Positions 254 to 42,771 of a stretch of 55,882 nt of DNA are shown here, one piece after another (position 1 is the stretch's first letter; every line of letters begins with the position of its first letter). Both the position numbers and the translations under genes were made by a program. Source of the stretch: a virus (taxonomy: Duplodnaviria > Caudoviricetes); IMG/VR virus record IMGVR_UViG_3300011443_000016, positions 1-55,882 of that record; one strand, written 5' to 3'. Below the pieces are notes generated by a model that was not told the origin of the DNA, ran no database searches, and saw only the letters and a list, made by a program, of their open reading frames with translations.

Positions 254-573
254 TGAGTGACATGGCTGAATTGGTTTACAGTGAACTGAAGAAGGATTTG
301 GCGGCGCTGCAACGGCAAGTGACGGATAACAGCCGTGTCGAACGTGCTGAAATTGCTGATTCGATTCCGGCTTATACGTTGACGAATGCGCCGCTGGCAG
401 TCGATGGCGGGCTGGGCGATGGTACGAACGGCGGTTATATCACGCTGGCCTGGATTTCCAACGGGCGCAAGAGTGGTGAAACGGCGGGTAACGGAACAGG
501 AGCATTGTGCTTCTATAACACCGCAACAAATAGCTGGTTTGGGGTTCGTTCAGAAGTCGCTATAACCGTCTAA
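253..573 (+). CDS. Small tail-associated hypothetical protein
   Basis: Coupled to the upstream stop (TGATG), with an N-terminal coiled coil, inside the tail module. Confidence 0.6.
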   Translation: MSDMAELVYSELKKDLAALQRQVTDNSRVERAEIADSIPAYTLTNAPLAVDGGLGDGTNGGYITLAWISNGRKSGETAGNGTGALCFYNTATNSWFGVRSEVAITV

Positions 574-1355
574 TCATCATTTTTCTTTTGTCGTTGCCAT
601 CTTAGCTTGGCGGCATCGCTCATTCTCTTTTTAGTTTCTTCGCTGTGCATTCTGCCTTTGCCTGCGATACTCAACTTTTTACGGGTTTCATCACTTGCGG
701 GCGGCCTGTTTTTGGCAACCTCGCTAAGTTTCCGGCGTGTCTCATCACCGCGAATTTTACCTTTGTTCACTTTACTGAGTTTATGCCGGGTTTCTTCAGT
801 TACTATCCTGCCCTTGCCTGCTTCACTGATTTTTCGTCTATGTTCCTCGCTGAGTTTTTGCCCTTTTCGCGATTTGTTTAATTGCAAAAAATGTTCTCGC
901 TGTTTCTGGGTTGGAATTCTGTCTTTATTGGCCTCTCGCTGAGCCACAGCCATTCGCGCTCGTTGTTCGGGATCTAGGATATGAGGGATTGATTTTTGCA
1001 CAATGCTCATTTTAAGCAATGACTCAGGTGAGTGTTTCAACCCTCGCATTGGAGCAGTGGCATCAACGGAAATGTTATAGCAAATCCCTTTAGGTATATA
1101 AACATTCAAGTAATGTTGTTCACGGCTGTTTAACTCCGCGATTGAGCAGCGTTCAAGAATTTTAAACTGGAATACTTTTTCTCCGTATTTATTCCAGGCA
1201 TGTTGCAGGTGTTGATTGTGGTGTCTGTTTTTCTTTAAGTCTCGCTTATGCTCAGTTTGACGAGCGCGAATATCTTCGGCTTGGCCGATATAAATCTTGT
1301 TGTTTTTAGTGTTGAGGATAACGTAAATGCCGGACGTGGGTGTATACTTAACCAT
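570..1355 (-). CDS. GIY-YIG homing endonuclease with NUMOD3-type repeats
   Basis: SGIYVILN...YIGQA motif, HHNQHLQHAWNKYGE, repeated [19 protein letters not shown] units; AT-rich and antisense to the tail operon. Confidence 0.9.
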   Translation of the reverse strand: MVKYTPTSGIYVILNTKNNKIYIGQAEDIRARQTEHKRDLKKNRHHNQHLQHAWNKYGEKVFQFKILERCSIAELNSREQHYLNVYIPKGICYNISVDATAPMRGLKHSPESLLKMSIVQKSIPHILDPEQRARMAVAQREANKDRIPTQKQREHFLQLNKSRKGQKLSEEHRRKISEAGKGRIVTEETRHKLSKVNKGKIRGDETRRKLSEVAKNRPPASDETRKKLSIAGKGRMHSEETKKRMSDAAKLRWQRQKKNDD

Positions 1356-1430
1356 GATAGTCTCCGATCAGACTGTCCATCTACCCGGTGTTTCAAGCAC
1401 GCGGGTAGATTCGTATTTCCTCTCATTTTA
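1343..1430 (-). promoter_or_regulatory. Endonuclease leader: -10 TAAAAT, GC hairpin, GGAG SD, opposing -10 TATACT
   Basis: -10 at 1430-1425; hairpin ATCTACCCG-C-GTG-cttgaaa-CAC-CGGGTAGAT (1410-1379); + strand TATACT at 1343-1348. Confidence 0.55.
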
Positions 1431-15426: not shown

Positions 15427-15432
15427 TTAAAC

Positions 15433-18817: not shown

Positions 18818-18830
18818 TAGGAAAGTTGAA

Positions 18831-19190: not shown

Positions 19191-19921
19191 GCGCAGCAGC
19201 CAAAATCATCGGTCTGGAACTGACCCAGCAAGAGGCGCAGGAATTGGTGAGGCGGATTGACCATCATCTGACCAGTGCGGAATACCAACTCAGCGCGGCG
19301 CGGGAACTCATCTGGCAACTGCATGAACATGGTGGCTGGCAGGCGTTGGGTTACAAATCGTGGAATGCCTGCGTCCAGGCCGAATTTGAGCAGTCGTCCG
19401 CCAGTGTCTACCGCCAACTGAATGCCGCCCTGGTGGAACTGGAATTGTCGCCCAATGGGAGAATCGGTGAACTGAACGAACGGGTGCTGCGCCCGTTGAC
19501 GCGCCGCAATTTCGACACGGAAGCACGGCAAGCCATCTGGTCAATCAGCCAGGAGATTGTGGGTGAGGGCGGCAAGGTGACAACGGGTGTGGTTGAGGAA
19601 GTCGTGACCGGGTTGAAAGAAATGCTGGTGAGTGGGCATACTCAAGACAGTGACGGCAACCAGCACGCCATCACCGAAATCATGCACGCTGATCTGGTGG
19701 CACGGGTGCGCGAAAAGAAAATCGCCCACAAGGAACACATTCGCCGGATGGACAAACCGCGCGATTACATCCTGGGCGGCAAACCTGCTGCGCATATCGA
19801 ACGTCAGCAGCCCTGCGATGCAGTGATTATTTTGAACCTGGATACTTTTGAAGACATTAAACTACATGAAGCACAGCGCAGTGGAAAGAAAATTTATTGT
19901 TCGCTGTGGACGGAGGATTAA
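19187..19921 (+). CDS. Hypothetical DNA-binding protein
   Basis: GWQALGYKSW...EF...SVYRQL HTH-like motif common in phages; ATGA-coupled. Confidence 0.6.
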   Translation: MSAAAKIIGLELTQQEAQELVRRIDHHLTSAEYQLSAARELIWQLHEHGGWQALGYKSWNACVQAEFEQSSASVYRQLNAALVELELSPNGRIGELNERVLRPLTRRNFDTEARQAIWSISQEIVGEGGKVTTGVVEEVVTGLKEMLVSGHTQDSDGNQHAITEIMHADLVARVREKKIAHKEHIRRMDKPRDYILGGKPAAHIERQQPCDAVIILNLDTFEDIKLHEAQRSGKKIYCSLWTED

Positions 19922-20043
19922 GTGACAAGGCGCGGGTTACGGGGATAAATTCGTTCCGCGCCTTGTGCCACATGAGAGGAACGGGTCGCCAACCGTGCAA
20001 CCGTTCGCTAGGTAGTATACCATGAAATCAACAGGAGCAACCG

Positions 20044-20394
20044 ATGACCATCCAGACACCGACCAAACCGCGCGGCAAGCGCGAAGCGATCCTCACCCCC
20101 CAGCGCAAGCAACTGATTTTGAATTTGATCCACGAGTACAGACGGATGCACGAAATCAGCCCGACATTCCTTGAGATTGCCGTTGGAATCGGGTACACAG
20201 GCACGATGGAAGGCACAGCCTATACTTACGTGATGGACTTGATTCGTGAGGGCTGGCTGCGCCGTGCTGCCCCAGGTGCGCGGGCGATCCTGCCCGTGTA
20301 TCCGCCAACTGCGGTCTATCATGAAATCACTGACCCTGACTTGAAAGTTGTGGCGCATCGTCAAAAGAATCTTAGGATTCTCAGGAGAATATAA
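20044..20394 (+). CDS. LexA-type DNA-binding-domain-only protein
   Basis: LTPQRKQLILNLI..Y......PTFLEIA...L..EGWL.R.PG.RAI; no S24 peptidase domain. Confidence 0.7.
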   Translation: MTIQTPTKPRGKREAILTPQRKQLILNLIHEYRRMHEISPTFLEIAVGIGYTGTMEGTAYTYVMDLIREGWLRRAAPGARAILPVYPPTAVYHEITDPDLKVVAHRQKNLRILRRI

Positions 20395-20774
20395 TGCCAG
20401 CCAAACCTGTCAACGTCTTTGAACAAGAGAAAGAACAACGCGAAAAGGCACTGCGTAAAAAGTATGCTGCCAAGCGGGAAAAGATGCTCAGGCAGCGCAC
20501 CGGATTAACCCGCAAGAACCACACGCTGCGCATCCAGGGCGCGGTCATGCAGGTGGTCAGCCGTGAGTTGATCCGTGAGCGCTGGCTGCATACCGAACGC
20601 AAAGACTTTTCACGCGGCGGCAAAAAGGGGCGATCCTATCACTTTGCCATCTGGCGCTACACGCTGCAATCTGCGGACGGGCGCAGGTGGACGGCGCTGC
20701 AAGCTCAGGCACACGATTCTAATCATGGGCATATGCTCAACGTGTCGGGCTTGTGGGGACTGAAACAATCCTAA
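20394..20774 (+). CDS. Basic hypothetical protein
   Basis: TAATG-coupled ORF with AGGAG SD. Confidence 0.55.
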   Translation: MPAKPVNVFEQEKEQREKALRKKYAAKREKMLRQRTGLTRKNHTLRIQGAVMQVVSRELIRERWLHTERKDFSRGGKKGRSYHFAIWRYTLQSADGRRWTALQAQAHDSNHGHMLNVSGLWGLKQS

Positions 20775-20804
20775 CCCCGATGTGTCATAAAACAAAATTT
20801 GTGT

Positions 20805-20896
20805 TATAATAGACACATCAAAAGAAGTCCCCGCGCTGTTGAAGCAGCCGGGGCATGATCCAAAAGGACAGGCTAATGGATACCTCTCAGTATACC
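20805..20896 (+). promoter_or_regulatory. Endonuclease leader: extended -10, hairpin, SD, opposing -10
   Basis: TGtTATAAT ending at 20810; hairpin 20827-20854; AAGGA SD; AGTATA at 20889-20894. Confidence 0.55.
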
Positions 20897-21352
20897 TCAA
20901 AAGACTATATCCGTTTTTGGTCAAAAGTGAATATTGCGCTTGATTCCGATTCCTGCTGGAATTGGAAAGCGTCTATCAATAGACATGGATATGGACAATT
21001 TACTCAAAAAAGCAAAGTCGTTAAAGCGCATCGTGTCGCTTGGATTTTGACTTACGGGAAAATCCCTGATGGGCTTCACGTTCTCCACACATGCGACAAT
21101 CGTGCTTGCTGCAATCCTAAACACCTATTTTTAGGCACGAACAAAGACAACGTTGATGATCGTGAACAAAAAGGGCGCAATAAGATTATGCGCGGCGAAA
21201 GTAACGGGAACTCAAAATTAACTATTTCTCAAGTAGAATATATTCGTGCGCGTTATGCTGCTGGTGGAATTTCGCAGCAAAAACTGGCTGAAGAAACCGG
21301 GATAGATCAAACCCAAGTCAGCAATATTATTCGACGCAAAGTGTGGAAATAA
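20876..21352 (+). CDS. HNH homing endonuclease with C-terminal HTH
   Basis: RFWSKV, CWNW, AHRVAW, VLHTCDNRACCNPKHLFLGT..DN. Confidence 0.92.
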   Translation: MDTSQYTSKDYIRFWSKVNIALDSDSCWNWKASINRHGYGQFTQKSKVVKAHRVAWILTYGKIPDGLHVLHTCDNRACCNPKHLFLGTNKDNVDDREQKGRNKIMRGESNGNSKLTISQVEYIRARYAAGGISQQKLAEETGIDQTQVSNIIRRKVWK

Positions 21353-21353
21353 G

Positions 21354-22202
21354 ATGAAAAATTTCCTTGAATATGTACGTCAACGACTTGAAGTCAACGA
21401 GTATAAATTCAGCAAACAATTTGCGAATCTCGATCTATTCATGCAATCCCCCGATGATAAGCTAATTTGGATTTGCTATCTCGATAAAGAAATTGAGCCT
21501 GAACAAATCAGACGTATGTTTGACTTTACAGGGCATGTTCTCGTCGTCGTTAACGAAAAACTGATTCCCAACGAAATTACTTCACGCGAAGAAACCCCAC
21601 AATGGCTTAGAGTTTTGCACGGACTCTGGATGGGGCGTATCTATGTGTGGAATGATAGGCATTTATTTGGGATTCACTTTGATTACGATAGTGGAGATAT
21701 AAGCGAGTCGGGCGCGATCCAGCCCGATGAACTACTGCTGGTCGAAACCGGCACATGGCTGCGCGGCTGGACGGGAACGTATCGGCTGGCACGGTTCTGG
21801 GATAAGTCGTGGTGGCAAGAAAGCGCCTGGACGTTTCATGAAACTTACAACCGATACAAGCAGGAACAAGAGAAGGTCAACAGCCAGCAGTGGCAGGATT
21901 ATCAGAAGGCCAGCGATAGCAGCAGTCGCCAAGCCTATGAGCAGGCGCGGGATGAATACCAACGCCAGCAGCAGCAACGCGAAAACCGCCAGGAACGTGC
22001 TTACTATGCGCCGCCTAAGCAGCAAGGCAGCAAGCGCGATTTCATGCGTGAATTCATGACCTGTGGCAACCTGAGCGCAGCGCGCAAACTGTATTTGCAA
22101 CTGGTGAAAGACAACCATCCTGATGTGCATGGTCAGGAGAAAACCGCCATCATGCAAGATATTAACGCAGCCTGGGATAAGGCGCAGGAGGTATTGATAT
22201 GA
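21354..22202 (+). CDS. Protein with C-terminal J-domain (HPD motif)
   Basis: ARKLYLQLVKDNHPDVHG....MQDINAAW, after a Gln-rich linker. Confidence 0.7.
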   Translation: MKNFLEYVRQRLEVNEYKFSKQFANLDLFMQSPDDKLIWICYLDKEIEPEQIRRMFDFTGHVLVVVNEKLIPNEITSREETPQWLRVLHGLWMGRIYVWNDRHLFGIHFDYDSGDISESGAIQPDELLLVETGTWLRGWTGTYRLARFWDKSWWQESAWTFHETYNRYKQEQEKVNSQQWQDYQKASDSSSRQAYEQARDEYQRQQQQRENRQERAYYAPPKQQGSKRDFMREFMTCGNLSAARKLYLQLVKDNHPDVHGQEKTAIMQDINAAWDKAQEVLI

Positions 22203-22429
22203 GAAAACTTATCACATGGACAATCCCGTTTATGACCGGAGTCGCCTGCCAGATCATTCTACAATCGCCCACACCTGTCTTCGGCAGACTGTTGGTGGCG
22301 CTGCTGCTGGGCTTCGTGGCGTCATTCGTGTTTGACATGGCGCTGAAAGCCTACACGGTGCAAGAATTCCAGGACGTAACGTGGAGCGTGACCGCAACGG
22401 TTGAACCTGCGGACGAGGAGCAGGTTTAG
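22199..22429 (+). CDS. Small membrane protein
   Basis: Two hydrophobic segments; GGAGG SD; ATGA coupling. Confidence 0.6.
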   Translation: MRKLITWTIPFMTGVACQIILQSPTPVFGRLLVALLLGFVASFVFDMALKAYTVQEFQDVTWSVTATVEPADEEQV

Positions 22430-22477
22430 ACATCGTTACAAGATAGTATGAATATTGAAATCATGCTGCGTTAAGAC

Positions 22478-22599
22478 TTTACGAAGTCGGCAGGCAGGGC
22501 TACAATTCGATACATGCTCAATAAATGAGCAGCGGCGGAATGACCGCCGCTTATCCACTTACACGAGGGCAGTCGCGTAAATGAATGATCTATATTCTA
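22478..22599 (+). promoter_or_regulatory. Replication operon promoter and hairpin leader
   Basis: TTTACG-17-TACAAT (22478-22506); hairpins TGCTCA/TGAGCA and AGCGGCGG/CCGCCGCT. Confidence 0.6.
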
Positions 22600-22790
22600 C
22601 CCCAACTGAACCCGAATTCCAAGACCCAAGCATTAAAACTGCATTAAATTCCCGCTGGAATTATTTTAAATCGCTGCATGGAGACATCCTCGCGGCGCAA
22701 TTTGATTCTGATTCCCTTTCCGCCAACCGCAATTTCGTCCAGATTGACCGCCAAACTTATGTAGCGTTGGCAGAAAGCATGAAATCATGA
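22581..22790 (+). CDS. Hypothetical protein
   Basis: ORF coupled to the initiator gene. Confidence 0.55.
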   Translation: MNDLYSTPTEPEFQDPSIKTALNSRWNYFKSLHGDILAAQFDSDSLSANRNFVQIDRQTYVALAESMKS

Positions 22791-23614
22791 CCGATGATGT
22801 AAAGACTATTCGCGCGCCGCGCACTAAAGATCGCCCCTACTTTTCAATGGCACGGGCAACCGCCCAGGACAACACGCTCACCTGGGAAGCGCGTGGCGTG
22901 CTGGCCTATCTCCTGAGCAAGCCGGACGATTGGCAGGTGATGATTAAAGACTTGCAGCAGAACTGCGGGCGCGACAAGGCACGAACGATCCTCAAGGAAT
23001 TGCAGGATCATAAATACCTGAGCGTTGAGCAAGTCCACGACGCTAAGGGGAAATTCTCCCGTAATCAGTACCGTGTGTTTGAGACACCGTTTACTGAAAA
23101 CCCGTCAACGGTTTACCCGTCAACGGGAAACCCGCCACTTACAGATAACAGAGAAGCACAGACTATAGAATTAGAAAAAGATACTGCGCCTGACGGCGAT
23201 CTTCCTCCCAAGAAAAGCAAAGCGGAACTGGATGCGGAATTTGAATGTATCGCGGAGGTGTGGGGGAATCGGGCGGGCGGCTGGGTGAGCAGTATGCAGG
23301 GAATGATCTTCGGCAGCAAGAAAGTGAAAGGCGAATGGCGCGATTGCCAGTTTGAACCGCCTGCCACGATTGACGAAGTGAAAGCCTTTGGCGTGTATGC
23401 CCGCAAGCGCTCACTGGATGGCGCGATGGTCACAACTGCTGCCACCATTCAGCGCTGGTTCTATGACTTCCGCAACGGCAAGCAGAAAATATCGCCCACG
23501 CCCGATGATCCCGATTATGACCCGCGCATGGATTTGAGTATTCCAGTTCCGTTTGACCCAGCAGATATTTTTAAGGGCAAGCCATATTCGCCCAGAGAGG
23601 ATGACGAATCGTGA
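22787..23614 (+). CDS. Replication initiator / replisome organiser (wHTH)
   Basis: LTWEARGVLAYLLSKPDDW, LKELQ..KYL, internal ENPST repeats; lies before the primase-helicase. Confidence 0.75.
   Translation: MTDDVKTIRAPRTKDRPYFSMARATAQDNTLTWEARGVLAYLLSKPDDWQVMIKDLQQNCGRDKARTILKELQDHKYLSVEQVHDAKGKFSRNQYRVFETPFTENPSTVYPSTGNPPLTDNREAQTIELEKDTAPDGDLPPKKSKAELDAEFECIAEVWGNRAGGWVSSMQGMIFGSKKVKGEWRDCQFEPPATIDEVKAFGVYARKRSLDGAMVTTAATIQRWFYDFRNGKQKISPTPDDPDYDPRMDLSIPVPFDPADIFKGKPYSPREDDES
23085..23144 (+). repeat. 15-bp period tandem repeats, putative origin iterons
   Basis: ACCCGTCAACGG at 23100 and 23115, with degenerate copies at 23085 and 23130. Confidence 0.6.
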
Positions 23615-23928
23615 ATGAGTTTAAAGATTTGTACGCACCGCGTCAGCAGGGAACGTGGGTCACGCCCCGGCAAGGCTTAACAGTCGGGATGGATTTGCAC
23701 GACTGGAAGCGCTTTGTGGTGCGCGCCGTGCTGGTCATTCGCCGCGACCCTGATGCGGAACGGCGCATCCGTAAGGCGCAGCGCTTGTTGACAAAGACGC
23801 AGCGTGTCGGTGCGCAGTGGGGCGGTTGGTACGTACAGAACTTAATCACGAATGTGATCCGTGATGCGCGTTGGGATATTGAGGATCGAGTAAACGTCCG
23901 CATGAATCAATTGGAGCTATGGTCATGA
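23611..23928 (+). CDS. Hypothetical protein
   Basis: GTGA/ATGA coupling on both sides. Confidence 0.55.
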   Translation: MNEFKDLYAPRQQGTWVTPRQGLTVGMDLHDWKRFVVRAVLVIRRDPDAERRIRKAQRLLTKTQRVGAQWGGWYVQNLITNVIRDARWDIEDRVNVRMNQLELWS

Positions 23929-25751
23929 CGACAGGTGATGCAGTGCTGGCACGACTGGCACAATATGATGTGAAAAAAGACTCAACGGGTGCGTATCGGT
24001 TCAACAGCCCATTCCGCGCGGGAGCAAACTCGCACAGTTGCAGCCTGACGCTGGACGGCGATGGTGAACATGGCGCATGGCAGGACTTCAACGGTGGCGA
24101 CAAGGGCAGCTTGTACGAACTGGCAACCCGGCTGGGCGTGCCGATTGAGGGCAAGGAACGTCAGCAGGTAGCCGACAGTAAACGGGCATACAAGAATCTG
24201 GCGGAATATGCTGCGCTGAAAGGTGTGCCGGAAAGCGTGTTTCTGACCGCCAAGTGGAGCCAAGAAACCGTCACGTATGACAAGCGACCTGCCTTTGAAT
24301 TCCCGACGCAAGGCGGCAAGCGCTATCGCTTTGCCGATGGCAATAAGCCCGCCTTCAAATCACAGGTGGGATACAAAGCCTGCTGGTATGGCCTGACGCG
24401 GGCGATTGAACTGGCGAAGGAACAGAACACGGCGCTGGTAATCTGCAATGGTGAACCCAGCACGATTGTCGGCCTGCACTATCGCGTCCCGGCCTGCTGC
24501 ATCACGGGCGGCGAACAACCGACCATCCCAGCGCACCTGCTGACGCAACTGAAAGAAGTCTGGACGGGTGAAATCTGGCTGGCGCTGGATTGTGATGAGG
24601 CGGGGCGCAAGGCAGCGAACGGCAAGGCAGGACTACTGCGCGCCGCTGGGTTCACGGTCAAGGTGCTGGATTTGAACCTGAGTGAAAAGGGTGATTTAGC
24701 CGATCACTGCAAGCTGCACACCGATAGCAGCCTGGAAGCGCTCAAGAAACTTGCCCAGGATGCCCCTAAAACCGATTTTAAAGGGGTTTCTAGCAACGCA
24801 GCGCCCAGCACGGCTATAACTATCGTCAAACGCTCTGAACGCCTGTCAAACTACATTGCACGGTTGAATGATTTTGATGCCCCGCGCACAGCCGTTCCGA
24901 TCCCATTCCCAATGCGCGTCCTGCACCAATTCGGCGGCATGGCACAGGTGATGAAACCCGGCAAGATGATGGGGATTGTAGGGGTGAGCGGTGGCGGCAA
25001 AACCTCATTGGTGGAAACGCTGGTGGATGCGTGGCTGCCCTTTCATGTGCCGTGTCTGGTCTGGTCGCCGGAATGGACGCCGGATGAGTTTGTGGAACGC
25101 GCCGTGCAGCGCTATGGCGGACCACGCACCGATGAACTCTACCGCCATGAAATTTTCATTGATGAGCAGCAGCGCGGGATCAAGGATGGCTTTGGGCAGG
25201 AACTCAACGCAGGTCAGTTACAGGACGCATCGAAAGCGATTGCCAAACTACGGGCATTTGAGTCCGAAGTCGGCTACCTGGACATGCCGATGCTGACGGT
25301 GGCGCATCTGCAAAACTCGATTGATAACACGCTGCGCTCGATTGACTTCAAACCGCGCGTGCTGGTGATTGATTACATCCAACTGATGGCGGCGCTGGAA
25401 CCGGGGAACACCACCCTGTATGACCAACTGATGCGCATCAAAGCGGTAGGCAATCAGTTTGGTCTCGTTCCAGCGCTGGCTTCCCAGGTGACGAAAACCA
25501 GCGCTAAAGGGCAAAGCAACGGACGGGTTCTGGATGCGATGGATGCCCGTTATGTGAATGACGATGCGTTCAATCTGTTCATTACGATCAACCCTGACCG
25601 CAATACGCTGGGCGATTATCTGCCTGCGGCGGTGCTGAATGTTGCCAAGAACAGCCTGGGACAGCGCGGCAAGGTGCGCGTGCCTGCTAATTGGGAACGG
25701 CTGACGTTCAAAGACGAGAAACATTTCAACCAGAAATTCGATGAGGATTAG
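23925..25751 (+). CDS. Primase-helicase (TOPRIM + DnaB-like SF4)
   Basis: ICNGEPS and LDCDEAG TOPRIM motifs, KGDLAD, Walker A GVSGGGKT, VIDYIQLM, ASQ, VAKN. Confidence 0.85.
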   Translation: MTTGDAVLARLAQYDVKKDSTGAYRFNSPFRAGANSHSCSLTLDGDGEHGAWQDFNGGDKGSLYELATRLGVPIEGKERQQVADSKRAYKNLAEYAALKGVPESVFLTAKWSQETVTYDKRPAFEFPTQGGKRYRFADGNKPAFKSQVGYKACWYGLTRAIELAKEQNTALVICNGEPSTIVGLHYRVPACCITGGEQPTIPAHLLTQLKEVWTGEIWLALDCDEAGRKAANGKAGLLRAAGFTVKVLDLNLSEKGDLADHCKLHTDSSLEALKKLAQDAPKTDFKGVSSNAAPSTAITIVKRSERLSNYIARLNDFDAPRTAVPIPFPMRVLHQFGGMAQVMKPGKMMGIVGVSGGGKTSLVETLVDAWLPFHVPCLVWSPEWTPDEFVERAVQRYGGPRTDELYRHEIFIDEQQRGIKDGFGQELNAGQLQDASKAIAKLRAFESEVGYLDMPMLTVAHLQNSIDNTLRSIDFKPRVLVIDYIQLMAALEPGNTTLYDQLMRIKAVGNQFGLVPALASQVTKTSAKGQSNGRVLDAMDARYVNDDAFNLFITINPDRNTLGDYLPAAVLNVAKNSLGQRGKVRVPANWERLTFKDEKHFNQKFDED

Positions 25752-25785
25752 ATTCTCCCATTGGGAGAGAAAGTGAGCCAACCGA

Positions 25786-26250
25786 ATGAACACACGTGAG
25801 TTTGAACGGGAATTATTTATCGCCATCGAAGGATATTTTGGCGGAGATAATTGGAAAGCTAAAGACGGGCGTGATTATACCTGGGTGATGGATGATCTGA
25901 CCATGAATTGCAGTGATGAACAGTGGTTGATCGTTGATCTGACGCTGAGCATGATTGCTGACGAACTGTTCATCACAGGCGAAGTGCCGTGCAGTACGCC
26001 TGTCAGCCCGAATGAATGGGCGCACGAAGATTGGGATGAAAATGTGCCGCCTTACGTGCCGCCTGCGCCCAAAGCGTGGTGGTTCTGCATTGAAGATATG
26101 ATCCCGCGTCAAGGTACGGCAGACGAACTAATGAATTACACCGGACCGTTTGCCACTGAGCGCGAGGCGTTCATTGCAGAAATCGTCATCATGGATGAAC
26201 GGATTGACAACTTAGTGGCGGAAATCGCGCTGCTGCGAGGAAAATCATGA
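25786..26250 (+). CDS. Acidic hypothetical protein
   Basis: Open ORF coupled to the MTase. Confidence 0.6.
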   Translation: MNTREFERELFIAIEGYFGGDNWKAKDGRDYTWVMDDLTMNCSDEQWLIVDLTLSMIADELFITGEVPCSTPVSPNEWAHEDWDENVPPYVPPAPKAWWFCIEDMIPRQGTADELMNYTGPFATEREAFIAEIVIMDERIDNLVAEIALLRGKS

Positions 26251-26858
26251 CGATCATTCAAACCAACAAACCGCTGAAGAAGCGCAGCGCCTATGATTTT
26301 TATCCCACGCCACGCCCCTTCTGCGATGAAGCCCTGGAACTGATTCACTTTCAGACCTGGAACGTCTTCAAGGATGGATACGTGCCGGAACTGCATATCC
26401 TTGACCCTGGCTGCGGAACGGGTGTGTGGGGACAGGCGGCACTAGACCGCTGGCCTCACGCGGTGGTGGATGGCGTGGAAATCCGCGATGTGGACACGCC
26501 AGCAGGCTACCGGTATTTGTACCGAGGCGACTTTCGCTTGCAAGACACGGGCATGGATTATGACCTGATTATCGGCAATCCGCCGTTCGTGTATGCCGAG
26601 TCATTTGTGCGCGTTGGGCTGGACAACTTGAAAGCGGACGGTCTGATGCTCTACCTGCTGCCACTGTCTTTTCTGGCAAGCAAGGGCAGGGCGCGCGGTT
26701 TGTTTCGGCATCACCCGCCGATGGAAGTGCATGTGGCGCATCGGGTTTCGTTCACTGGCAACGGCAAGTCCGACAATACCGAATATGCCGTTTATATCTG
26801 GAAGCAGGGCTGGAAGGGAACGCCCAGCCTCAAGTGGATGCTTAGAAGCAAATCATAA
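26247..26858 (+). CDS. Amino (N6-adenine type) DNA methyltransferase
   Basis: DFYPTP, LDPGCGTG, IGNPPF. Confidence 0.85.
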   Translation: MTIIQTNKPLKKRSAYDFYPTPRPFCDEALELIHFQTWNVFKDGYVPELHILDPGCGTGVWGQAALDRWPHAVVDGVEIRDVDTPAGYRYLYRGDFRLQDTGMDYDLIIGNPPFVYAESFVRVGLDNLKADGLMLYLLPLSFLASKGRARGLFRHHPPMEVHVAHRVSFTGNGKSDNTEYAVYIWKQGWKGTPSLKWMLRSKS

Positions 26859-26862
26859 GCGC

Positions 26863-26891
26863 TTTACAAGCGGGTTGAAACGGTCTATAAT
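26863..26891 (+). promoter_or_regulatory. Promoter TTTACA-17-TATAAT
   Basis: -35 at 26863-26868, -10 at 26886-26891. Confidence 0.75.
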
Positions 26892-26922
26892 AAAAGTTAT
26901 CTTTCAGATTGGAGGATGCAGA

Positions 26923-27261
26923 ATGCGGACACGATTGGGCGCTCACTTCGGAGAAACACACATCTTCACGGCTGTCTTCCAGGGCTTCAGTCGCACCACC
27001 AGCGAGTCGAATGTGGCCTGCTTTCAGCGGGTGCGGCTGAACGGGGTAGAGGTGGCGGATCATGTGTGGGTGCATCGCAGCAAGGCGATGAAACGGCTGG
27101 GCATGGAATACGGAGACATTGTGGAATTTGAGGCGCGGGTGGGGCGTTACAGCCGGGGTGAACCACTGCGGCATGTGTCGGAAATCGAGTATGATTTCAT
27201 GCTTGAAAAAATCAAGGATGTGCGGATTATGGAACGCCGTGCAGAAAGGGAAAGCGCATGA
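26923..27261 (+). CDS. Hypothetical protein (OB-fold-like)
   Basis: GGAGG SD; DHVW...GDIVEFEARVGRY. Confidence 0.6.
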   Translation: MRTRLGAHFGETHIFTAVFQGFSRTTSESNVACFQRVRLNGVEVADHVWVHRSKAMKRLGMEYGDIVEFEARVGRYSRGEPLRHVSEIEYDFMLEKIKDVRIMERRAERESA

Positions 27262-27599
27262 ATGAACAGGTGTTTGCCGATGCTTTGAAGCACCCGCGCA
27301 TCGGGGAGACAGCCCGTGTGGAGTGGGAGCGCTATCGGGGGAACGTGAGCCAGGAAGCGGCGGTGCTGGGCATGATGGCGCAGCATACGGCGCATCTGGC
27401 AGCGGTGTACAAGGACGGCGTAGTCAGCCCCACCGATGACGGCGTGTTCATCACCGACATTCCCGACTATGACCTGACGGTGGTGGATGCTTACTTCCCG
27501 TCACTGAACCAGCGGCAGGTGGGGATTTTCAGCCGCAAGGTCGGGGAACAGGTGGCACAGGTAATGATCGGACGTTTACAGATGCGATTAGGCCAATAA
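27258..27599 (+). CDS. Hypothetical protein
   Basis: ATGA-coupled ORF. Confidence 0.6.
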   Translation: MNEQVFADALKHPRIGETARVEWERYRGNVSQEAAVLGMMAQHTAHLAAVYKDGVVSPTDDGVFITDIPDYDLTVVDAYFPSLNQRQVGIFSRKVGEQVAQVMIGRLQMRLGQ

Positions 27600-27615
27600 G
27601 GGAGGGCAAACAACC

Positions 27616-28206
27616 GTGAAAAGCCGAACGACCAAAGACCCGCGCGTGATGAATACCAATGGCACATTATCCAAACCGCGTATGCTGGTGGTGGAAGCGT
27701 TGGAAGCACAGGGCAAAGAAGGCGCTACCATTGACGAACTGGTGGAATTGCTCACTCAGGATTTGAATGTTGATAATCCTAAAATGTCCATCGGGCAATC
27801 CCTGTCCAAGATGGAAAATGACCAATATATTATTCGTTCTCGCAATCGCTGGTATCTGAAGGAACATGCACCCAGCGCCCAACCTGCGCTCCCACCACAA
27901 GCCAACGGACGGGTGCAGCCGATTGCGCCGATAGCACAGAAGCGCAGCGGCAAGACGGTGGAACTGTACACTAGCCCGCGCGTGTTTAGTGATGTGATCG
28001 GCCTGTCACTGCTCATCAAAGAACAGTGGTTTAAGCTGCCTTTGTTCGGCGGGGTGCGCATCTGCATGGGACACGAGTCGCCCATCTGGTCGCCCGAACA
28101 GGAAACCTTCAGCGATGTGAGCGTGATTAAGATTCTGCTCAAGGATGGGCGTGTGGTGGAGGAACGGCCTGCGCTGAAAGATTTAGTGACAATCGCCCCT
28201 GAATAA
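27616..28206 (+). CDS. Winged-helix domain protein
   Basis: GATIDELVELL...SIGQSLSKM...YIIRSRNRWYL. Confidence 0.55.
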   Translation: MKSRTTKDPRVMNTNGTLSKPRMLVVEALEAQGKEGATIDELVELLTQDLNVDNPKMSIGQSLSKMENDQYIIRSRNRWYLKEHAPSAQPALPPQANGRVQPIAPIAQKRSGKTVELYTSPRVFSDVIGLSLLIKEQWFKLPLFGGVRICMGHESPIWSPEQETFSDVSVIKILLKDGRVVEERPALKDLVTIAPE

Positions 28207-28217
28207 TCCTCAATCTT

Positions 28218-28292
28218 AATTTTGGGTATTGACAAATAATTCAATACCCACTATACTGAGTATATAAGTTTAATTTTTCACCTTGAGGCTCA
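28218..28292 (+). promoter_or_regulatory. Promoter TTGACA-17-TATACT in the 18-bp box, with inverted repeat and TGAGGCTCA SD
   Basis: -35 at 28229-28234, -10 at 28252-28257; TGGGTATTGA-8-TCAATACCCA. Confidence 0.88.
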
Positions 28293-28300
28293 CACTCAAA

Positions 28301-28741
28301 ATGACCACCGCCAAAACCTTCTACACCGACAAAGAATTGACCCGCCGCAGCACGGCGCAACTGATCGCCATTTACAACCGCCTGTTCAATACGAATGTTT
28401 GGGACGAATATTTCAACCCGTTTGAACACCGGATGGAAATCTGGATGGCGCTGTGGATGGAAATGCGGGCGCAGGAAGTGGTGGCGCTGTTCACGGATGC
28501 GGATCGTGGCACAGGCGAGAAATATAAGGCCATGAAGATTAACATCACGCCAGACGGTTGGATTATCACCTGGGGCAAACATCACAGCACAACTCGCAAA
28601 TCGAACGCAAAAGTGAATGAAAGTCAAAAAACTTTAATGCGTCAATTGAAGGCCGATGGCGAAACATATCGTTGGATTGCTGATGTGTTTGGCATTACTG
28701 ATAGTGCTGTTTTTTACATCTTAAATAAAAGAGGAGCCTAA
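28301..28741 (+). CDS. Early protein with C-terminal HTH
   Basis: GETYRWIADVFGITDSAVFYIL. Confidence 0.65.
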   Translation: MTTAKTFYTDKELTRRSTAQLIAIYNRLFNTNVWDEYFNPFEHRMEIWMALWMEMRAQEVVALFTDADRGTGEKYKAMKINITPDGWIITWGKHHSTTRKSNAKVNESQKTLMRQLKADGETYRWIADVFGITDSAVFYILNKRGA

Positions 28742-28831
28742 CTTTTTTATTCATACTTGAGAAGTGATAATCGTTGGTTGTGATATATATCGCAATTTGT
28801 GATAAGATTGTGAAATTACAGGAGGATTTCA

Positions 28832-29368
28832 ATGGCGAAACAACCCAAGATTACACGACGCAAAATTACCGATTATATTCCCGACAATTCAAATGCAAAT
28901 TCTGGTTCAGAACGCGGTTTGCAAATGGTCGAAGATAGCCTATCTCAGGACGGGGTAGGGCGATCTATTGTTGCAGATGGACATGATCGAATCCCAGCGG
29001 GCAACAAAACGCTTGAAGCGGCTATGAATGCTGGTATTGAAGATGTGATCGAAATTGAAACCGATGGGCGTGCCTTGATCGTCCACAAGCGCATCGATTG
29101 GGATTTGGCCGATCCTCAAGGTGCGGCACGTCGCTATGCTTATCGAGATAATCGGGCATCTGAAGTGTCATTGAATTGGGATATTGAACAAATAAAAAGC
29201 GATCTCGATCAAGGAATTGATTTAAGCGGATTGTTTTCCGAATTAGAATTGAAAACACTACTGGATAAAATCGTTCTCCCCGATGATTGGAAAGAATTTG
29301 ATGAATCGGTTGCCAATGAAGTCGAATACTTCACTTGCCCGGAATGTGGGCATAAGTTCCCGAAATGA
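28832..29368 (+). CDS. ParB/Srx-like N-terminal domain protein with zinc ribbon
   Basis: DYIPD..NAN, GRSIV.D....AGN.T, DNR, C-terminal CPECG; typical partner of phage MTases. Confidence 0.7.
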   Translation: MAKQPKITRRKITDYIPDNSNANSGSERGLQMVEDSLSQDGVGRSIVADGHDRIPAGNKTLEAAMNAGIEDVIEIETDGRALIVHKRIDWDLADPQGAARRYAYRDNRASEVSLNWDIEQIKSDLDQGIDLSGLFSELELKTLLDKIVLPDDWKEFDESVANEVEYFTCPECGHKFPK

Positions 29369-30792
29369 TTAATGTTTTCGATTTGTTTCCAAAGGCACAA
29401 AATAGGCCGATAACGGTTCGAGAAGCCTTTTTACAATTACCAGAATTAGAACTGGATACCCCGGTAGCCTGGGGTAATAATCCCAATTGGGCAGTGTCAA
29501 AATATATCCCACGCATAAAACAGGGAGGCTCATGTGATGACGTGCATCCCAAAAAAGCAGGGTATAATTTGATAAGATTACACTCCCAAAAGGTTTCCCC
29601 AACAATCCCCAAGACTTGTAACGGTTCTTTGTTCGCCGGGTTGCTGCCACCTGAAGGCAATAGATATTGTTCTATTCAAGAATTAAAACGTCTCGCGTCA
29701 TTTCCAGACGATTTTCAACTAATCGGTAAATTTCGGGATCAATGGGCGTGCATCGGCAACAGTGTTCCACCACTTTTTATGAGGGCAATTGCTTTGCAAA
29801 TACGATCAGAAGTCTTTGATAAATCTACAGAGACATCTACAAACAATCCCCGAAATAGCTACCTGCAAATTTTAGATGCAGCATGGCGGCAACATCTAGC
29901 ACCGCGCCTATCCGATGCGCCAACGGTGATTAGCACATTCGCAGGGGCGGGTGGTTCGTCACTTGGTTACAGCATGGCGGGATACCGAGAACTGTTAGCT
30001 GTTGAATGGGACAACAATGCTGTCGAAACGTTCAAACTGAACTTTCCTGATGTGCCGGTTTATCATGGCGACATTGCCAAGTTATCCGTCGATGAGTGTT
30101 TGCAGATGGCAGGTATCCAGGCGGGCGAGTTGGATGTATTCGATGGTTCGCCGCCGTGCCAGGGATTTAGCGCTGCTGGCAAGCGCATGATGGATGATCC
30201 GCGCAACCAATTGTTTCGTGAGTACGTGCGACTGCTGAGAGGTTTGCAACCCAAAGTATTCGTGATGGAAAACGTGAGCGGTATGGTTAAGGGCAAGATG
30301 AAGCTTGTCTTTGTCGAAATCCTCAAGGAACTCAAGGCCAGCGGTTATCAGGTCAAGGCGTGCTTGCTCAATGCGATGTATTTCAATGTGCCACAGTCCA
30401 GGCAGCGTATGATATTTATCGGTGTGCGGAATGACCTGGGGATTGTGCCGAGTCATCCGAAAGCGCAGCATAAAATACTAAACGGTACGGCGTTGTTACC
30501 TGATGAACTGCAAAATAAACGTTTTTTGACATGGCGTAAAAAATTTAAACGCGACACCTTGCGCCCGTTGGGAAGCGTACCCATTACGGTTACTCGAAAG
30601 GGCATTGACCTGGAAGGGCGTGAAGTCTTTTCAGATGCATCAATAGTTCAAATATTTCAATCTTTTCCAACACAGTTTCTATTTACTGGAACAAATGCCC
30701 AAAGCGTTATGCGTATCGGTAACAGCGTTCCCCCGCTATTCATGAGGGCAATCGCCCAACATATTCGAGAGCAAATCCTAGATATGCTTTAA
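29365..30792 (+). CDS. C5-cytosine DNA methyltransferase with duplicated TRD-IX-X module
   Basis: FAGAGG, GSPPCQGFS, ENV, QSRQR; IGNSVPPLFMRAIA present twice. Confidence 0.9.
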   Translation: MINVFDLFPKAQNRPITVREAFLQLPELELDTPVAWGNNPNWAVSKYIPRIKQGGSCDDVHPKKAGYNLIRLHSQKVSPTIPKTCNGSLFAGLLPPEGNRYCSIQELKRLASFPDDFQLIGKFRDQWACIGNSVPPLFMRAIALQIRSEVFDKSTETSTNNPRNSYLQILDAAWRQHLAPRLSDAPTVISTFAGAGGSSLGYSMAGYRELLAVEWDNNAVETFKLNFPDVPVYHGDIAKLSVDECLQMAGIQAGELDVFDGSPPCQGFSAAGKRMMDDPRNQLFREYVRLLRGLQPKVFVMENVSGMVKGKMKLVFVEILKELKASGYQVKACLLNAMYFNVPQSRQRMIFIGVRNDLGIVPSHPKAQHKILNGTALLPDELQNKRFLTWRKKFKRDTLRPLGSVPITVTRKGIDLEGREVFSDASIVQIFQSFPTQFLFTGTNAQSVMRIGNSVPPLFMRAIAQHIREQILDML

Positions 30793-30887
30793 AACGAGCC
30801 ACAAGACGATCTGAGGCGTTTCCGTGTCCATACAGGTATAATCTATGCTATAATACCCATAACGCTGTTTAAAAGGAATATTTGCAC

Positions 30888-30926
30888 ATGAGTGATGAAC
30901 TGCAAGCCCAACCGAATAAATCGTAG
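30888..30926 (+). pseudogene. Orphan 5' stub of the gene at 31777
   Basis: AAGGA SD followed by MSDELQAQPNKS*, versus MSDVIQPNDKR at 31777. Confidence 0.55.
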
Positions 30927-31014
30927 TATAATAAAATAAATCCTCCGCACCGCTTCGGACAGTGGGGAGGAATAACCCAAAGGAACTAACCCTATGGATA
31001 CCTCTCAGTATACC
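30927..31014 (+). promoter_or_regulatory. Endonuclease leader: -10, hairpin, SD, opposing -10
   Basis: TATAAT at 30927-30932; TCCTCC...GGAGGA hairpin 30941-30971; AGTATA at 31007-31012. Confidence 0.55.
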
Positions 31015-31767
31015 CTAAAACAATCAAAACAATGTGAACGCTGCGGATTGTCTATTAATCATAATGGGCGCGGCAATTTCTGTTCGCAAGCCTGCTATTG
31101 GGCTTCTATGCGAAACCCCATTGAACGTATATGCAAAATTTGTAATCAGCCTTTTGTTGTGACTGCGAATCGAATAAAGCCTGGACAGGCATTATTTTGT
31201 AGTCGTAAATGTCGTGGAATATATCGCCAGCAAAGTCGTGTTGAATGTATCTGTATCCAATGCGGAAAAGACTTCTGGAAATACCCATCGGAAGTAAAGC
31301 GGGGCGGTGGAGTGTATTGCTCAGTTGAATGTTCTGGAATACATCGAACCCGGTCAATTAATTGCACCTGTTTAAATTGTGGCACTGAATTCACTTCTAC
31401 CCCTTCAAAAATTGAAAAGGGGAGCGGGAAATACTGTAGCCATAAATGTTATGCTGCGGTCAAAAGTTTGGAGTATCGCGGTGCAAAGAACCCTGAATGG
31501 CGTGGTGGGAAAAGTGATTATCGCGGGGAGAATTGGACACAGCAGCGAAAGTTAGCTTATAATCGTGATAACGGTGTATGTCAGCACTGCGGTAAGAAGC
31601 CGCAGAAGGGAAAACGAAAATTTCAGGTGCATCATATCAAACCGTTTCGCTTATTTGATGGTGATTATGAAGCAGCCAATCAACTGACGAATTTAATTAC
31701 ACTATGCGAGTCTTGTCATGGCAAAGCTGAACACGGTAAGATCGCTGTGCAGCCACATTTATTTTAG
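30994..31767 (+). CDS. HNH endonuclease with tandem Cys4 zinc fingers
   Basis: Four CxxC...(F/Y)CSxxC repeats, then RD.G.CQHCG...VHHIKP...NLITLCESCH. Confidence 0.9.
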   Translation: MDTSQYTLKQSKQCERCGLSINHNGRGNFCSQACYWASMRNPIERICKICNQPFVVTANRIKPGQALFCSRKCRGIYRQQSRVECICIQCGKDFWKYPSEVKRGGGVYCSVECSGIHRTRSINCTCLNCGTEFTSTPSKIEKGSGKYCSHKCYAAVKSLEYRGAKNPEWRGGKSDYRGENWTQQRKLAYNRDNGVCQHCGKKPQKGKRKFQVHHIKPFRLFDGDYEAANQLTNLITLCESCHGKAEHGKIAVQPHLF

Positions 31768-31776
31768 GAGTGAATC

Positions 31777-32331
31777 ATGAGTGATGTAATCCAACCAAAC
31801 GATAAACGCCTTTATATCTTCGGGAAAAATGGATGCTTGGTTCGCAGTATTGTGGATGCTAAAACAGGTAAGTCACACGCACCCTCGATTTTAGCCGATC
31901 AGGATTATTTTCCTGATGTGATGGATGCGTGTTTTGGCTTGCGATTGCAAGGACATCAACTCGCAGTGGTATCGAATGAAGGTGGCTGTGCATTCGGGAT
32001 TTTGACCGAAGAAGAAGCCGACTTGATGGCGAAAGCGGCTGCGGCTTATATCGGCACAGAGGTTTATAGGATATGCCCGTTCCATCCTAAAGGTAAAATT
32101 TCGCAATACACCAGGGAGCATCCGAATAGACTTCCCCAACCCGGCATGTTATCTGAAATCATGCATCAATTAGGGTTTCTTCCATCGGAAACGATATTTG
32201 TAGATGATTGGGAAACCAGTCGGCAAGCTGCAAACATGATCGGCGCGGGATTTGAGTGGAGTCATCAGTTCTTCAAGCGGGTCGATCCCTTTGCAGATCG
32301 CTTACACGCGGCGCTGGACTGGAAAGAATGA
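31777..32331 (+). CDS. HAD-IIIA (GmhB-like) phosphatase homologue with degenerate catalytic motifs
   Basis: VVSNEGG, CPFHP, RLPQPGML, FVDD; DxD motif replaced by GKN. Confidence 0.65.
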   Translation: MSDVIQPNDKRLYIFGKNGCLVRSIVDAKTGKSHAPSILADQDYFPDVMDACFGLRLQGHQLAVVSNEGGCAFGILTEEEADLMAKAAAAYIGTEVYRICPFHPKGKISQYTREHPNRLPQPGMLSEIMHQLGFLPSETIFVDDWETSRQAANMIGAGFEWSHQFFKRVDPFADRLHAALDWKE

Positions 32332-32588: not shown

Positions 32589-32681
32589 AAATGAAAATTC
32601 CCCGCGTCAACGGGGAATTCCTTTTGCCTGACCCTGACCGGATCACATTGCATTATACGAGTATTTTGCGGACGTGCCAAT

Positions 32682-42021: not shown

Positions 42022-42126
42022 TATAATTGAGGTCATAAATAGCAACAGGCCAGGAGTCGAAACCTTCTGGCCTGTCTACCAACAATGGAGTATCATTCCA
42101 TGTCAGATAACCTCGATAGTACCACA
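42022..42126 (+). promoter_or_regulatory. Endonuclease leader: extended -10, hairpin, SD, opposing extended -10
   Basis: TGtTATAAT ending at 42027; ACAGGCCAG/CTGGCCTGT 42045-42075; minus-strand TGgTACTAT at 42124-42116. Confidence 0.55.
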
Positions 42127-42771
42127 AGAACCTGCAAAACCTGTAAACAAGAACATCCCGCCACAACTGAATATTTCTACGCGGCAAAAAGTGGCGGGAA
42201 TATCTATCTGCGTGGCACATGCATTGCGTGTTACAAAGCGATTTCAAAGCAAGAACACGCGCGGCGATTTGCCGAAGACCCCGACAAAATCCGTCAGCAG
42301 CAGCGCGATTGGTTAGCTGATCCTGAGCATTATCAGGTGTATCGTGATTCTCAAAAAGAATGGATACATAGAAACCCTGAGAAGGTAAATGCGCAAGCCA
42401 GAAAATGGAAAATCGCCAACCCTGATAAGACTAAAATTATCAACAAAAAGGCGGGCGATAAATATTACGCTACTCATAAACACGTTCGCAAAGCAGGCAA
42501 ATCCCGCCGCCGCGCCCGCGAACTCGCAGCCCCAGGCCATCACACCGCCGCCGACATCCTGCTGCAAATAGCCTCGCAAACCGATAAGAAGGGGTGTTTG
42601 CGCTGTTGGTGGTGTGGATGTGCTATAATCGGTGCTTATCATGTCGATCACCGTGTAGCGCTGGCAAAGGGCGGAACGAACTGGCCTGACAATCTTGTCA
42701 TAAGCTGCCCGACCTGCAACCTGTCAAAACATGACAAGTCAGCGCAAGAATGGGCAGGGCGTTTAATATGA
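42100..42771 (+). CDS. HNH endonuclease
   Basis: CKTC...CIAC; CWWCG...HVDHRVALAKGGTN...NLVISCPTCNLSK. Confidence 0.9.
   Translation: MSDNLDSTTRTCKTCKQEHPATTEYFYAAKSGGNIYLRGTCIACYKAISKQEHARRFAEDPDKIRQQQRDWLADPEHYQVYRDSQKEWIHRNPEKVNAQARKWKIANPDKTKIINKKAGDKYYATHKHVRKAGKSRRRARELAAPGHHTAADILLQIASQTDKKGCLRCWWCGCAIIGAYHVDHRVALAKGGTNWPDNLVISCPTCNLSKHDKSAQEWAGRLI

Follow-up and report, generated by a model that had tools for sequence, protein, structure and literature searches.

The window analysed here is the entire virus record IMGVR_UViG_3300011443_000016 (55,882 bp, 52.7% G+C, ends overlapping by ~77 nt). It contains five copies of a leader cassette that recurs in front of unrelated genes, most of them free-standing homing-endonuclease genes. 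The leader consists, in this order, of a -10 box, an A-rich stretch, a GC-rich hairpin (hairpin 1), a Shine-Dalgarno sequence (SD), the ATG and, at +7 to +17, an opposite-strand hexamer that resembles a -10 box. We are confident that this is a portable cassette, conserved at the nucleotide level together with its backward -10-like element. With distinctly less confidence, the sequence suggests that the cassette probably works as an antisense-RNA brake on the gene behind it. Pfam and PHROGs recover a siphovirus-like gene set in the window (small and large terminase, tape measure, tail proteins, RusA, primase-helicase, methyltransferases); no phage RNA polymerase was seen among its genes. Five clear homing-endonuclease genes are present, two of GIY-YIG, one of HNH_3 and two of HNH type. 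The leader precedes four of them (Table 1) and is lacking from the second GIY-YIG gene, 10049-10786(-).

The HNH_3 gene at 20876 and the HNH gene at 30994 begin with the same 21 nt. This sequence is present exactly twice in the window, both times as the first seven codons of a gene, and the chance expectation for such pairs in 56 kb is ~4e-4 by our own arithmetic. The two products differ in architecture: one comprises HNH_3 (PF13392) and a helix-turn-helix domain (HTH) in 158 amino acids (aa), the other has HNH (PF01844) at the C-terminal end of 257 aa, and BLASTP finds little alignment past the shared seven residues (E 0.002). This much of the original prediction, made from the bare sequence, holds as it was put forward. 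It had also assigned a -10 box, a hairpin 8-17 nt later, an SD and an antisense -10 within the first eight codons to these two genes, to the GIY-YIG gene starting at 1355 (minus strand) and to the HNH gene at 42100. All parts are indeed found, with a gap of 8-18 nt; the antisense box is TATACT at three genes, and the fourth (42116-42121) is weak with 4/6 matches. Hairpin 1 of the four genes has folding energies (dG) of -14.9 to -20.0, and the common core proposed for the hairpins at 1379-1410 and 20827-20854 is confirmed. The 10 nt past the hairpin contain 5, 6, 8 and 6 T on the antisense strand versus 2, 2, 1 and 1 on the sense strand. Both the fifth copy at 22581, on a gene that is not a nuclease, and the second GIY-YIG gene without the design had been missed.

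GenBank phages include no close relative of the window: the region 20000-24000 has no near match, terminase relatives reach only 22-26%, and a search in distant mode with two leaders gave no relevant match. Among viral contigs the exact 21-mer has no match, and with one N it matches G001 only. A 17-base pattern has 26 matches in prokaryote genomes versus ~69 expected (own arithmetic), none in module context; matches at or below chance and out of context therefore give no host clue. Four relatives were fetched (G001 to G004, the window being G000). G001, found via the HNH of 30994, is a complete, syntenic relative of 58.8 kb with ~70% nucleotide identity, and its nine endonuclease genes are sited elsewhere than those of the window. 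GIY-YIG queries led to G002 (51.6 kb, more distantly related), G003 (52.8 kb, without nucleotide similarity) and G004 (a 6.2-kb fragment, 62% G+C). Further contigs examined are L102, L105, L107, L034 and L022 from IMG/VR and L273, L276 and L279 from metagenomes.

The module is present 29 times: five copies in the window, seven in G001, three in G002, five in G003, one in G004, five in other IMG/VR contigs and three in metagenome contigs. A scan for the composite finds 13 matches in 713,550 bases of IMG/VR nuclease loci versus none in reversed controls, and 27 matches in G000-G004 versus one in controls. Sixteen endonuclease genes of G000-G004 possess the leader, and a later scan added a 17th at G002 12206. 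In those 16, the sense -10 lies 67-83 nt 5' of the ATG and reads TATAAT (13), TAAAAT (2) or TACAAT (1). The genes behind the modules are nucleases in 25/29 cases (GIY-YIG, HNH_3 and two HNH types). The remaining four copies sit on the 69-aa gene (22581; G001 10457), on a G003 phrog_464 gene and on a G003 297-aa gene, with TAGAAT as backward hexamer in three and a 4-of-6 variant in one. Because of these copies the module, which had been proposed as a leader of nucleases, is not nuclease-specific; it is a general stand-alone expression unit of this phage group, used most for free-standing nucleases.

That four nuclease architectures from at least five phage genomes have this design, in places with identical sequence, supports a portable leader. 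The GIY-YIG cassette (~900 bp, ~549-1452), whole leader included, is inserted with respect to G001, whose corresponding flanks adjoin each other (blastn). The leader of 20876 resembles that of G001 19316, the orthologue of 30994 (76% over ~75 nt), and does not resemble that of 30994 itself, whose hairpin 1 (30941-30971) is unlike the hairpin of its G001 orthologue; parts of the leader have therefore been exchanged. A GIY-YIG gene on metagenome contig L273 has the same 21-nt start bar one base, which alters codon 2, and an HNH_3-AP2 gene of G002 begins with a diverged copy, so that one start region serves HNH_3, HNH and GIY-YIG genes. No recombination junction between two modules was seen; hairpins do differ between orthologues. 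The stems differ in sequence through compensating substitutions, as seen when 1379-1410 is compared with its G002 orthologue. On the sense strand, a C (or CG) is left unpaired in the 5' arm of most hairpins, and this arm has more unpaired bases in 19/29 modules.

Nuclease genes of one genome come in cassette and promoter-less forms, since the second GIY-YIG gene lies with small HNH-like open reading frames (ORFs; 11058-11483(-) and 11480-11827(-)) in a leftward operon without any cassette. Another design within the same phage is found in front of a LAGLIDADG gene of G001, 51475-52251(-) (L096 11475-12251), where TATAAT is directly followed by a short hairpin with the SD in its loop, without a backward hexamer. 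Back to back with the promoter of the minus-strand GIY-YIG cassette, TACAAT occurs at 1429-1434(+), 39 nt 5' of the next tail gene (ATG 1473); the GIY-YIG insert may supply a replacement promoter for a tail gene severed from upstream transcription. Upstream of the HNH cassette of 30994 lie two further TATAAT boxes 12 nt apart and a 12-codon ORF whose stop codon directly precedes the cassette -10 (30837-30927). A C5 cytosine methyltransferase gene (29365-30792) stands between a ParB-like gene and this cassette and is absent from G001, where those two adjoin. Among contigs of four DNA runs compared with 20501-40500, one of low depth (run X2) joins 30919 to 31900, which would omit promoter and HNH gene; it was not used (short side 21 letters, likeness threshold 85).

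The backward hexamer is kept as nucleotides and not as peptide, a conclusion supported by several comparisons. AGTATA, the reverse complement of TATACT, stands behind the ATG of 12/29 modules, 11 of them in G000-G004. Eight modules have it in the frame xAG-TAT-Axx and four in the frame AGT-ATA, and aligned GIY-YIG N-termini include both; it is this reading in two frames in homologous genes that places the conservation at the nucleotide level. The original prediction had named peptide-level conservation in homologues as a ground for refutation, and on this point the result is in its favour. The two strands of G000-G004 have 67 AGTATA sites, 11 of which fall inside the 22-nt windows after 21 module ATGs, versus 0.07 expected. 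MAFFT aligned the motif unaided, its last two bases (-12 and -11 of the backward -10 box) being invariant or nearly so. Between orthologue pairs, identity peaks at 73-87% over -31 to +14 (SD, ATG and first codons) versus 30-50% just downstream; in the second pair the hairpin shows an identity peak, too. All four modules with a Ser-Ile start use the same two codons of 18 possible pairs, and none of four nuclease genes without the leader has the backward hexamer. No sense-strand pairing partner for the motif is consistent across modules. A palindromic operator (GTATAC) was rejected, since the site is neither avoided nor enriched in the genome (11 occurrences versus 13.6 expected) and the majority of variant hexamers lack the palindrome.

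Four signals that distinguish between the strands, each independent of the others, speak for a structured antisense RNA of ~64 nt. With our search criteria (+4 to +27; T1, A2 and T6 required; at least 5/6 matches) a -10-like hexamer is present on the antisense strand of 22/29 modules versus the sense strand of 3/29, the background being 6% of 30-nt windows. The 10 nt after hairpin 1 contain on average 5.72 T in antisense versus 2.07 in sense direction, with the higher count in antisense in 28/29. If transcription starts ~7 nt past the hexamer, as assumed here, the predicted antisense RNA is 60-82 nt long (median 64) and forms two hairpins in every case according to single-sequence folds. Its 5' (second) hairpin, between hairpin 1 and the predicted start, has the anti-SD in or at the loop. 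This second hairpin has a mean dG of -9.29 (z -3.55) with 48 G.U among 262 pairs in antisense, versus -5.53 (z -1.61) with 7 among 209 in sense, and it is more stable in antisense in 26/29 modules. Control genes of G000-G003 (n=188) have z ~0 on both strands and G.U counts of 140/801 in sense versus 103/694 in antisense; an antisense dG of -7 or lower is reached by 4/188 of them versus 25/29 modules. Hairpin 1 has a GC-rich stem throughout (antisense dG -10.9 to -28.7 across all 29 modules), contains 29/340 G.U pairs in antisense versus 7/311 in sense and is more stable in antisense in 20/29. Both hairpins pooled, 77 G.U pairs in antisense stand versus 14 in sense; a G.U pair turns into an A.C mismatch when the opposite strand is read, and the bias therefore marks the strand whose fold was kept. 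The sense-strand fold around the SD is weak (mean -5.5 kcal/mol) and leaves the SD mostly in a loop; only 42085-42102 pairs the SD with the start codon.

According to the favoured reading, a cassette of ~105-115 bp would equip a gene with a start region and a brake of its own. Its first part is a -10-type promoter, TATAAT in nearly all cases and without a regular -35. A few A-rich bases come next, then a GC-rich hairpin whose 5' arm mostly has a bulged C, then SD and ATG, and finally a second, backward-pointing -10-type hexamer at +7 to +17, for which TATACT is the commonest sequence. From this backward promoter an antisense RNA would start at or just inside the start codon. Its first 25-30 nt would fold as a hairpin presenting the anti-SD in or at the loop, and it would end at the complement of the GC hairpin with a T-rich tail. 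Pairing with the fully complementary 5' untranslated region (UTR) would mask SD and AUG, or mark the duplex for cleavage, and the gene would be translated only if sense transcription outruns antisense. Since the antisense promoter must lie inside the gene, the cassette would carry the first 3-7 codons along, and because of this unrelated nucleases would begin with the same peptide. Observed directly are the anatomy, its recurrence on unrelated genes, a backward hexamer conserved at the nucleotide level and structures biased towards one strand; from these we infer that the hexamer fires, that the RNA starts and stops as described and that it represses.

Several observations weigh against an antisense RNA. 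Only 3-4 of 6 hexamer positions match in 7/29 modules, which is singly possible by chance, and a hexamer of at least 5/6 is lacking from 7/16 looser leader candidates in one set and 2/7 in another. Conversely, leaderless homologues have the hexamer in 30/144 and 12/69 cases, mostly from GIY codons of AT-rich phages. Because of their common ancestry the modules do not give independent counts; for some of the additional modules the hexamer was itself a selection criterion, and the z scores are derived from mononucleotide shuffles. As already conceded in the original prediction, a -35 is lacking in front of the antisense hexamers. Just 4/18 of them have a proper TG at -15/-14, and a two-hexamer sigma-70 scan of 18000-33000 did not list the hexamers at 20889 and 31007. 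The sense promoters of the module likewise lack a regular -35, and the missing -35 is therefore a trait of the promoter class and not a defect of the antisense box alone. The proposal that the A-rich stretch makes an antisense terminator of the hairpin is in line with the T bias, less so with the strength of the tails: these are weaker than those of four canonical terminators of the genome (9640-9690, 35255-35310, 39075-39115, 50765-50805), mostly well below them by tail score, by which 4-5/16 look strong. Alternatively, the A-rich bases could mark where the sense transcript begins. At 42045-42075, hairpin 1 is more stable on the sense strand (-20.0 versus -18.8). RNAalifold finds no consensus structure in MAFFT alignments of the leaders (A1, A4) or of the predicted RNAs (A5), all of which are out of register, and structural support therefore comes from single-sequence folds. 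A column-wise pairing search on leader alignment A4 gives a ragged structure, and hairpin 1 alone (A2, a poor alignment) has six consensus pairs, all with compensatory changes. No RNA run is among the listed sequencing runs holding this DNA (20501-30500).

Full sigma-70 promoters are present elsewhere in the window and contrast with the -10-only cassette promoters. Four of them (12107-12221, 14298-14397 and ~15390-15430, all minus; 28207-28282, plus) consist of TTGACA, 17 nt and TATAAT or TATACT, each with the same conserved ~11-nt stretch upstream, and are likely early promoters. TTGACA and TATAAT also occur 7 nt apart upstream of the small terminase gene (33202-33220; G001 23774-23792), kept in both phages at a spacing too short for a normal sigma-70 promoter.

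The modest T tails and a sense start that would fall 1-10 nt 5' of the hairpin are also in keeping with the view that the cassette is a mobile unit of promoter and stem-loop in the manner of the PeSLs of T4-type phages. Such a unit would be a recombination point that supplies each free-standing gene with its own promoter, the hairpin stabilising the 5' end of the sense mRNA and the A-rich stretch being the mRNA start, without any antisense RNA; the conserved hexamer would have another role or belong to the homology tract. The recurrence of promoter, stem-loop, SD and ATG beside variable genes fits the PeSL idea as far as it is laid out in the available sections of its descriptions (PMC2839356, PMC4122927), and so do the same leader on different genes and the apparent swapping of hairpins between 20876, 30994 and G001 19316. 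This explanation is unlikely all the same, as it leaves unexplained why the backward hexamer is retained while flanking codons and SD spacer diverge, the strand asymmetry of -10-like hexamers, the antisense G.U excess in both hairpins, and a second hairpin that is well folded on the antisense strand only and absent from control genes. In all modules the two -10 boxes are convergent at a distance of 79-100 bp, and a terminator behind the antisense start would confine the zone of collision; the hexamer may thus be a real promoter or RNA polymerase site acting on the DNA, where convergent transcription or a parked polymerase blocks the sense direction and the short RNA is a by-product. A by-product is not expected to keep a 5' anti-SD hairpin with G.U pairs, which looks like selection on the RNA itself, and we consider such interference quite unlikely as the sole explanation, although it and action of the antisense RNA are not mutually exclusive.

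A conserved N-terminal peptide or chance, with a hexamer lacking any nucleotide function, is very improbable as the origin of the shared start. GIY-YIG relatives in unrelated AT-rich phages do have -10-like strings merely from their GIY codons, in the proportions given above, and the same Ser-Ile-Pro start also occurs on the AT-rich contig L209, where no clear hairpin accompanies it. The reading of the motif in two frames already disfavours this explanation, as do the identical choice of codons in all four Ser-Ile cases, the excess of observed over expected sites and the absence of the motif from the four leaderless nuclease genes.

Antisense control of transposase translation is known from IS10/Tn10, where RNA-OUT opposes RNA-IN. 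There a nuclease-type gene of a mobile element has a weak promoter of its own and a second, convergent one a short way into the coding region. RNA-OUT has ~70 nt and covers SD and start codon, and the control travels with the element. The cassette has a comparable layout at sequence level: a promoter-like element inside the 5' coding end is convergent with the gene promoter, as the strand counts of the hexamers indicate, and the predicted RNA spans ATG, SD and hairpin 1, by geometry and with the assumed start. It differs in having two predicted hairpins, an anti-SD hairpin and a terminator, instead of one long stem-loop, and in being a leader common to unrelated phage genes and not a part of one transposon end. 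The likeness to IS10 RNA-OUT or type I antitoxins seen in the original prediction thus extends to layout and not to sequence, as the proposed Rfam search found no match: at the gathering score the whole window has 0 matches, including those to ctRNA models, and a permissive scan of 20760-20930 yields nothing near any gathering score. The best match to antitoxin RNA families in the permissive scan is fstAT (17.4 bits versus a gathering score of 72, E 0.73). Type I toxin-antitoxin systems act on a small hydrophobic toxin peptide, whereas the genes behind the module encode nucleases of 158-261 aa and other proteins of 69-297 aa.

Countertranscript RNAs (ctRNAs) of replicons of the pMV158, pT181 and pIP501 type are short RNAs opposite a leader, complementary to the translation start region and ending at an intrinsic terminator hairpin. 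Among phages, the available text of one source lists P22 sar and lambda OOP as short cis-antisense regulators and describes sar as an RNA of 68/69 nt that pairs with the ant mRNA (PMC12197685). The predicted RNA of the cassette is likewise short (50-90 nt class), opposite a leader, complementary to the translation start region and with a terminator-like hairpin predicted at its end. Unlike ctRNAs and sar, each bound to one replication or antirepressor gene at a fixed site, the module moves and is found on at least eight gene types.

PeSLs are described, in the parts of the sources available, as composite cassettes of promoter, stem-loop, SD and ATG that are repeated beside variable genes and are thought to mediate modular shuffling (PMC2839356, PMC4122927); in most of them the stem-loop is placed between -35 and -10 or covers the -10, and it acts as a terminator of sense transcription coming from upstream (PMC2839356). 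The module is similarly a composite repeated within a genome, with five copies in the window and seven in G001. Its stem-loop differs in lying 4-25 nt past the -10 and in having a T tail only on the other strand. Moreover, those sections describe PeSLs with a full sigma-70 promoter and an AT-rich upstream part, mention no backward -10 inside the gene and concern T4-like myovirus hosts, versus a siphovirus-like group here.

Homing-endonuclease genes of the T4 family are controlled, according to the sections available of PMC2988022, by hairpins that sequester the ribosome-binding site (RBS) and by late promoters. In seg43 of Aeromonas phage 25 a stable hairpin lies just upstream of the RBS without covering it, and antisense transcripts are treated there just as a possible side effect of insertion (PMC2988022). 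As far as that text goes, gene class, the apparent need to limit expression and the combination of own promoters with RNA hairpins are shared with the module, which differs in that its SD is mostly unpaired on the sense strand and no promoter lies inside the hairpin. The small sense-strand hairpin at 42085-42102, pairing the SD with bases beside the HNH start codon, recalls RBS-sequestering control of the T4 type and may add to the cassette control at this one gene.

Our literature search found no description of an antisense promoter common to leaders of homing-endonuclease genes, the nearest case being CfrI of cyanophage S-PM2. The parts available of two later sources, which cite Millard et al. 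2010, describe CfrI as an antisense RNA of ~225 nt that links the 3' end of psbA to the endonuclease gene F-CphI (PMC12197685, PMC5931967). Like the RNA predicted here, it is an antisense RNA of a phage linked to a free-standing homing-endonuclease gene. On the same partial basis, CfrI belongs to a lytic phage and a single locus, whereas the module is a repeated, portable leader covering the SD.

Homing-endonuclease genes are selfish and potentially harmful to their carrier, and how they are restrained in phages outside the T4 group is, to our knowledge, largely unknown. If the antisense brake exists, a portable antisense leader would explain how unrelated nuclease families settle harmlessly in new genomes and why unrelated genes have the same first few codons. 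The RNA would represent a new family, so far from uncultured phages only, and would join the short list of phage cis-antisense regulators. More tentatively, and more likely too broad than correct, two-hairpin countertranscripts of ~64 nt with an anti-SD loop and a terminator might be the standard brake on free-standing homing-endonuclease genes across a broad clade of uncultured phages from freshwater and groundwater, the recombining unit being the cassette of promoter, 5' UTR, antisense promoter and first few codons. On this wider view, any nuclease reading frame landing behind the cassette would inherit a self-limiting expression unit, and cassettes with a common leader in one genome (20876, 30994) could cross-regulate in trans, comparable to multicopy inhibition in IS10.

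Table 1. Features of the five leader cassettes in the window; the ends of all predicted antisense RNAs are inferred.
Feature	Positions	Strand	Source
GIY-YIG + NUMOD3 homing-endonuclease gene	570..1355	-	Pfam, PHROGs
Opposite-strand -10-like hexamer TATACT, within codons 3-5 of the GIY-YIG gene	1343..1348	+	
Predicted antisense RNA, 64 nt: 5' hairpin with anti-SD, hairpin 1, T tail	1355..1418	+	
SD of GIY-YIG gene	1362..1365	-	
Hairpin 1 of GIY-YIG cassette, GC stem, bulged C on 5' arm; T-rich tail on + strand	1379..1410	-	
Sense -10 box TAAAAT of GIY-YIG cassette	1425..1430	-	
Sense -10 box TATAAT of 20876 leader, TG at -15/-14	20805..20810	+	
Predicted antisense RNA, 62 nt	20821..20882	-	
Hairpin 1 of 20876 leader	20829..20853	+	
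SD of 20876 gene	20864..20868	+	
HNH_3 + HTH endonuclease gene	20876..21352	+	Pfam, PHROGs
Opposite-strand -10-like hexamer TATACT, codons 5-7	20889..20894	-	
Sense -10 TACAAT of fifth module	22501..22506	+	
Predicted antisense RNA, 69 nt; 5' hairpin -12.1 antisense vs -6.6 sense	22519..22587	-	
Hairpin 1 of fifth module, conserved in G001	22527..22555	+	
69-aa gene, not a nuclease, first gene ahead of replication genes; no Pfam/PHROG match	22581..22790	+	
Opposite-strand hexamer TAGAAT of fifth module, conserved in G001	22594..22599	-	
Sense -10 box TATAAT of 30994 leader	30927..30932	+	
Predicted antisense RNA, 68 nt; best T tail of the four nuclease leaders (8/10)	30933..31000	-	
Hairpin 1 of 30994 leader; antisense fold -17.3 with two G.U pairs, sense -14.9	30941..30971	+	
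SD of 30994 gene	30980..30984	+	
HNH (PF01844) endonuclease gene, orthologue of G001 19316-20077 (51% aa identity)	30994..31767	+	Pfam
Opposite-strand -10-like hexamer TATACT	31007..31012	-	
Sense -10 box TATAAT of 42100 leader, TG at -15/-14	42022..42027	+	
Predicted antisense RNA, 73 nt	42037..42109	-	
Hairpin 1 of 42100 leader, 12 bp	42045..42075	+	
SD of 42100 gene, inside small sense-strand hairpin also containing the start codon	42087..42090	+	
HNH (PF01844) endonuclease gene, third architecture	42100..42771	+	Pfam, PHROGs
Weak opposite-strand hexamer TACTAT, 4/6, TG before; least convincing of the set	42116..42121	-	

Two features of the window lie apart from the cassettes. The neighbouring genes 2406-3782 and 4334-5662 have common N-terminal virion-protein and C-terminal tail-fibre domains (same PHROGs), and G001 matches both. 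Amid the structural genes, 43270-46869 encodes a 1199-aa fusion of a methyltransferase domain, GT4/GT1-type domains and two GT2 glycosyltransferase domains, which is kept in G001.

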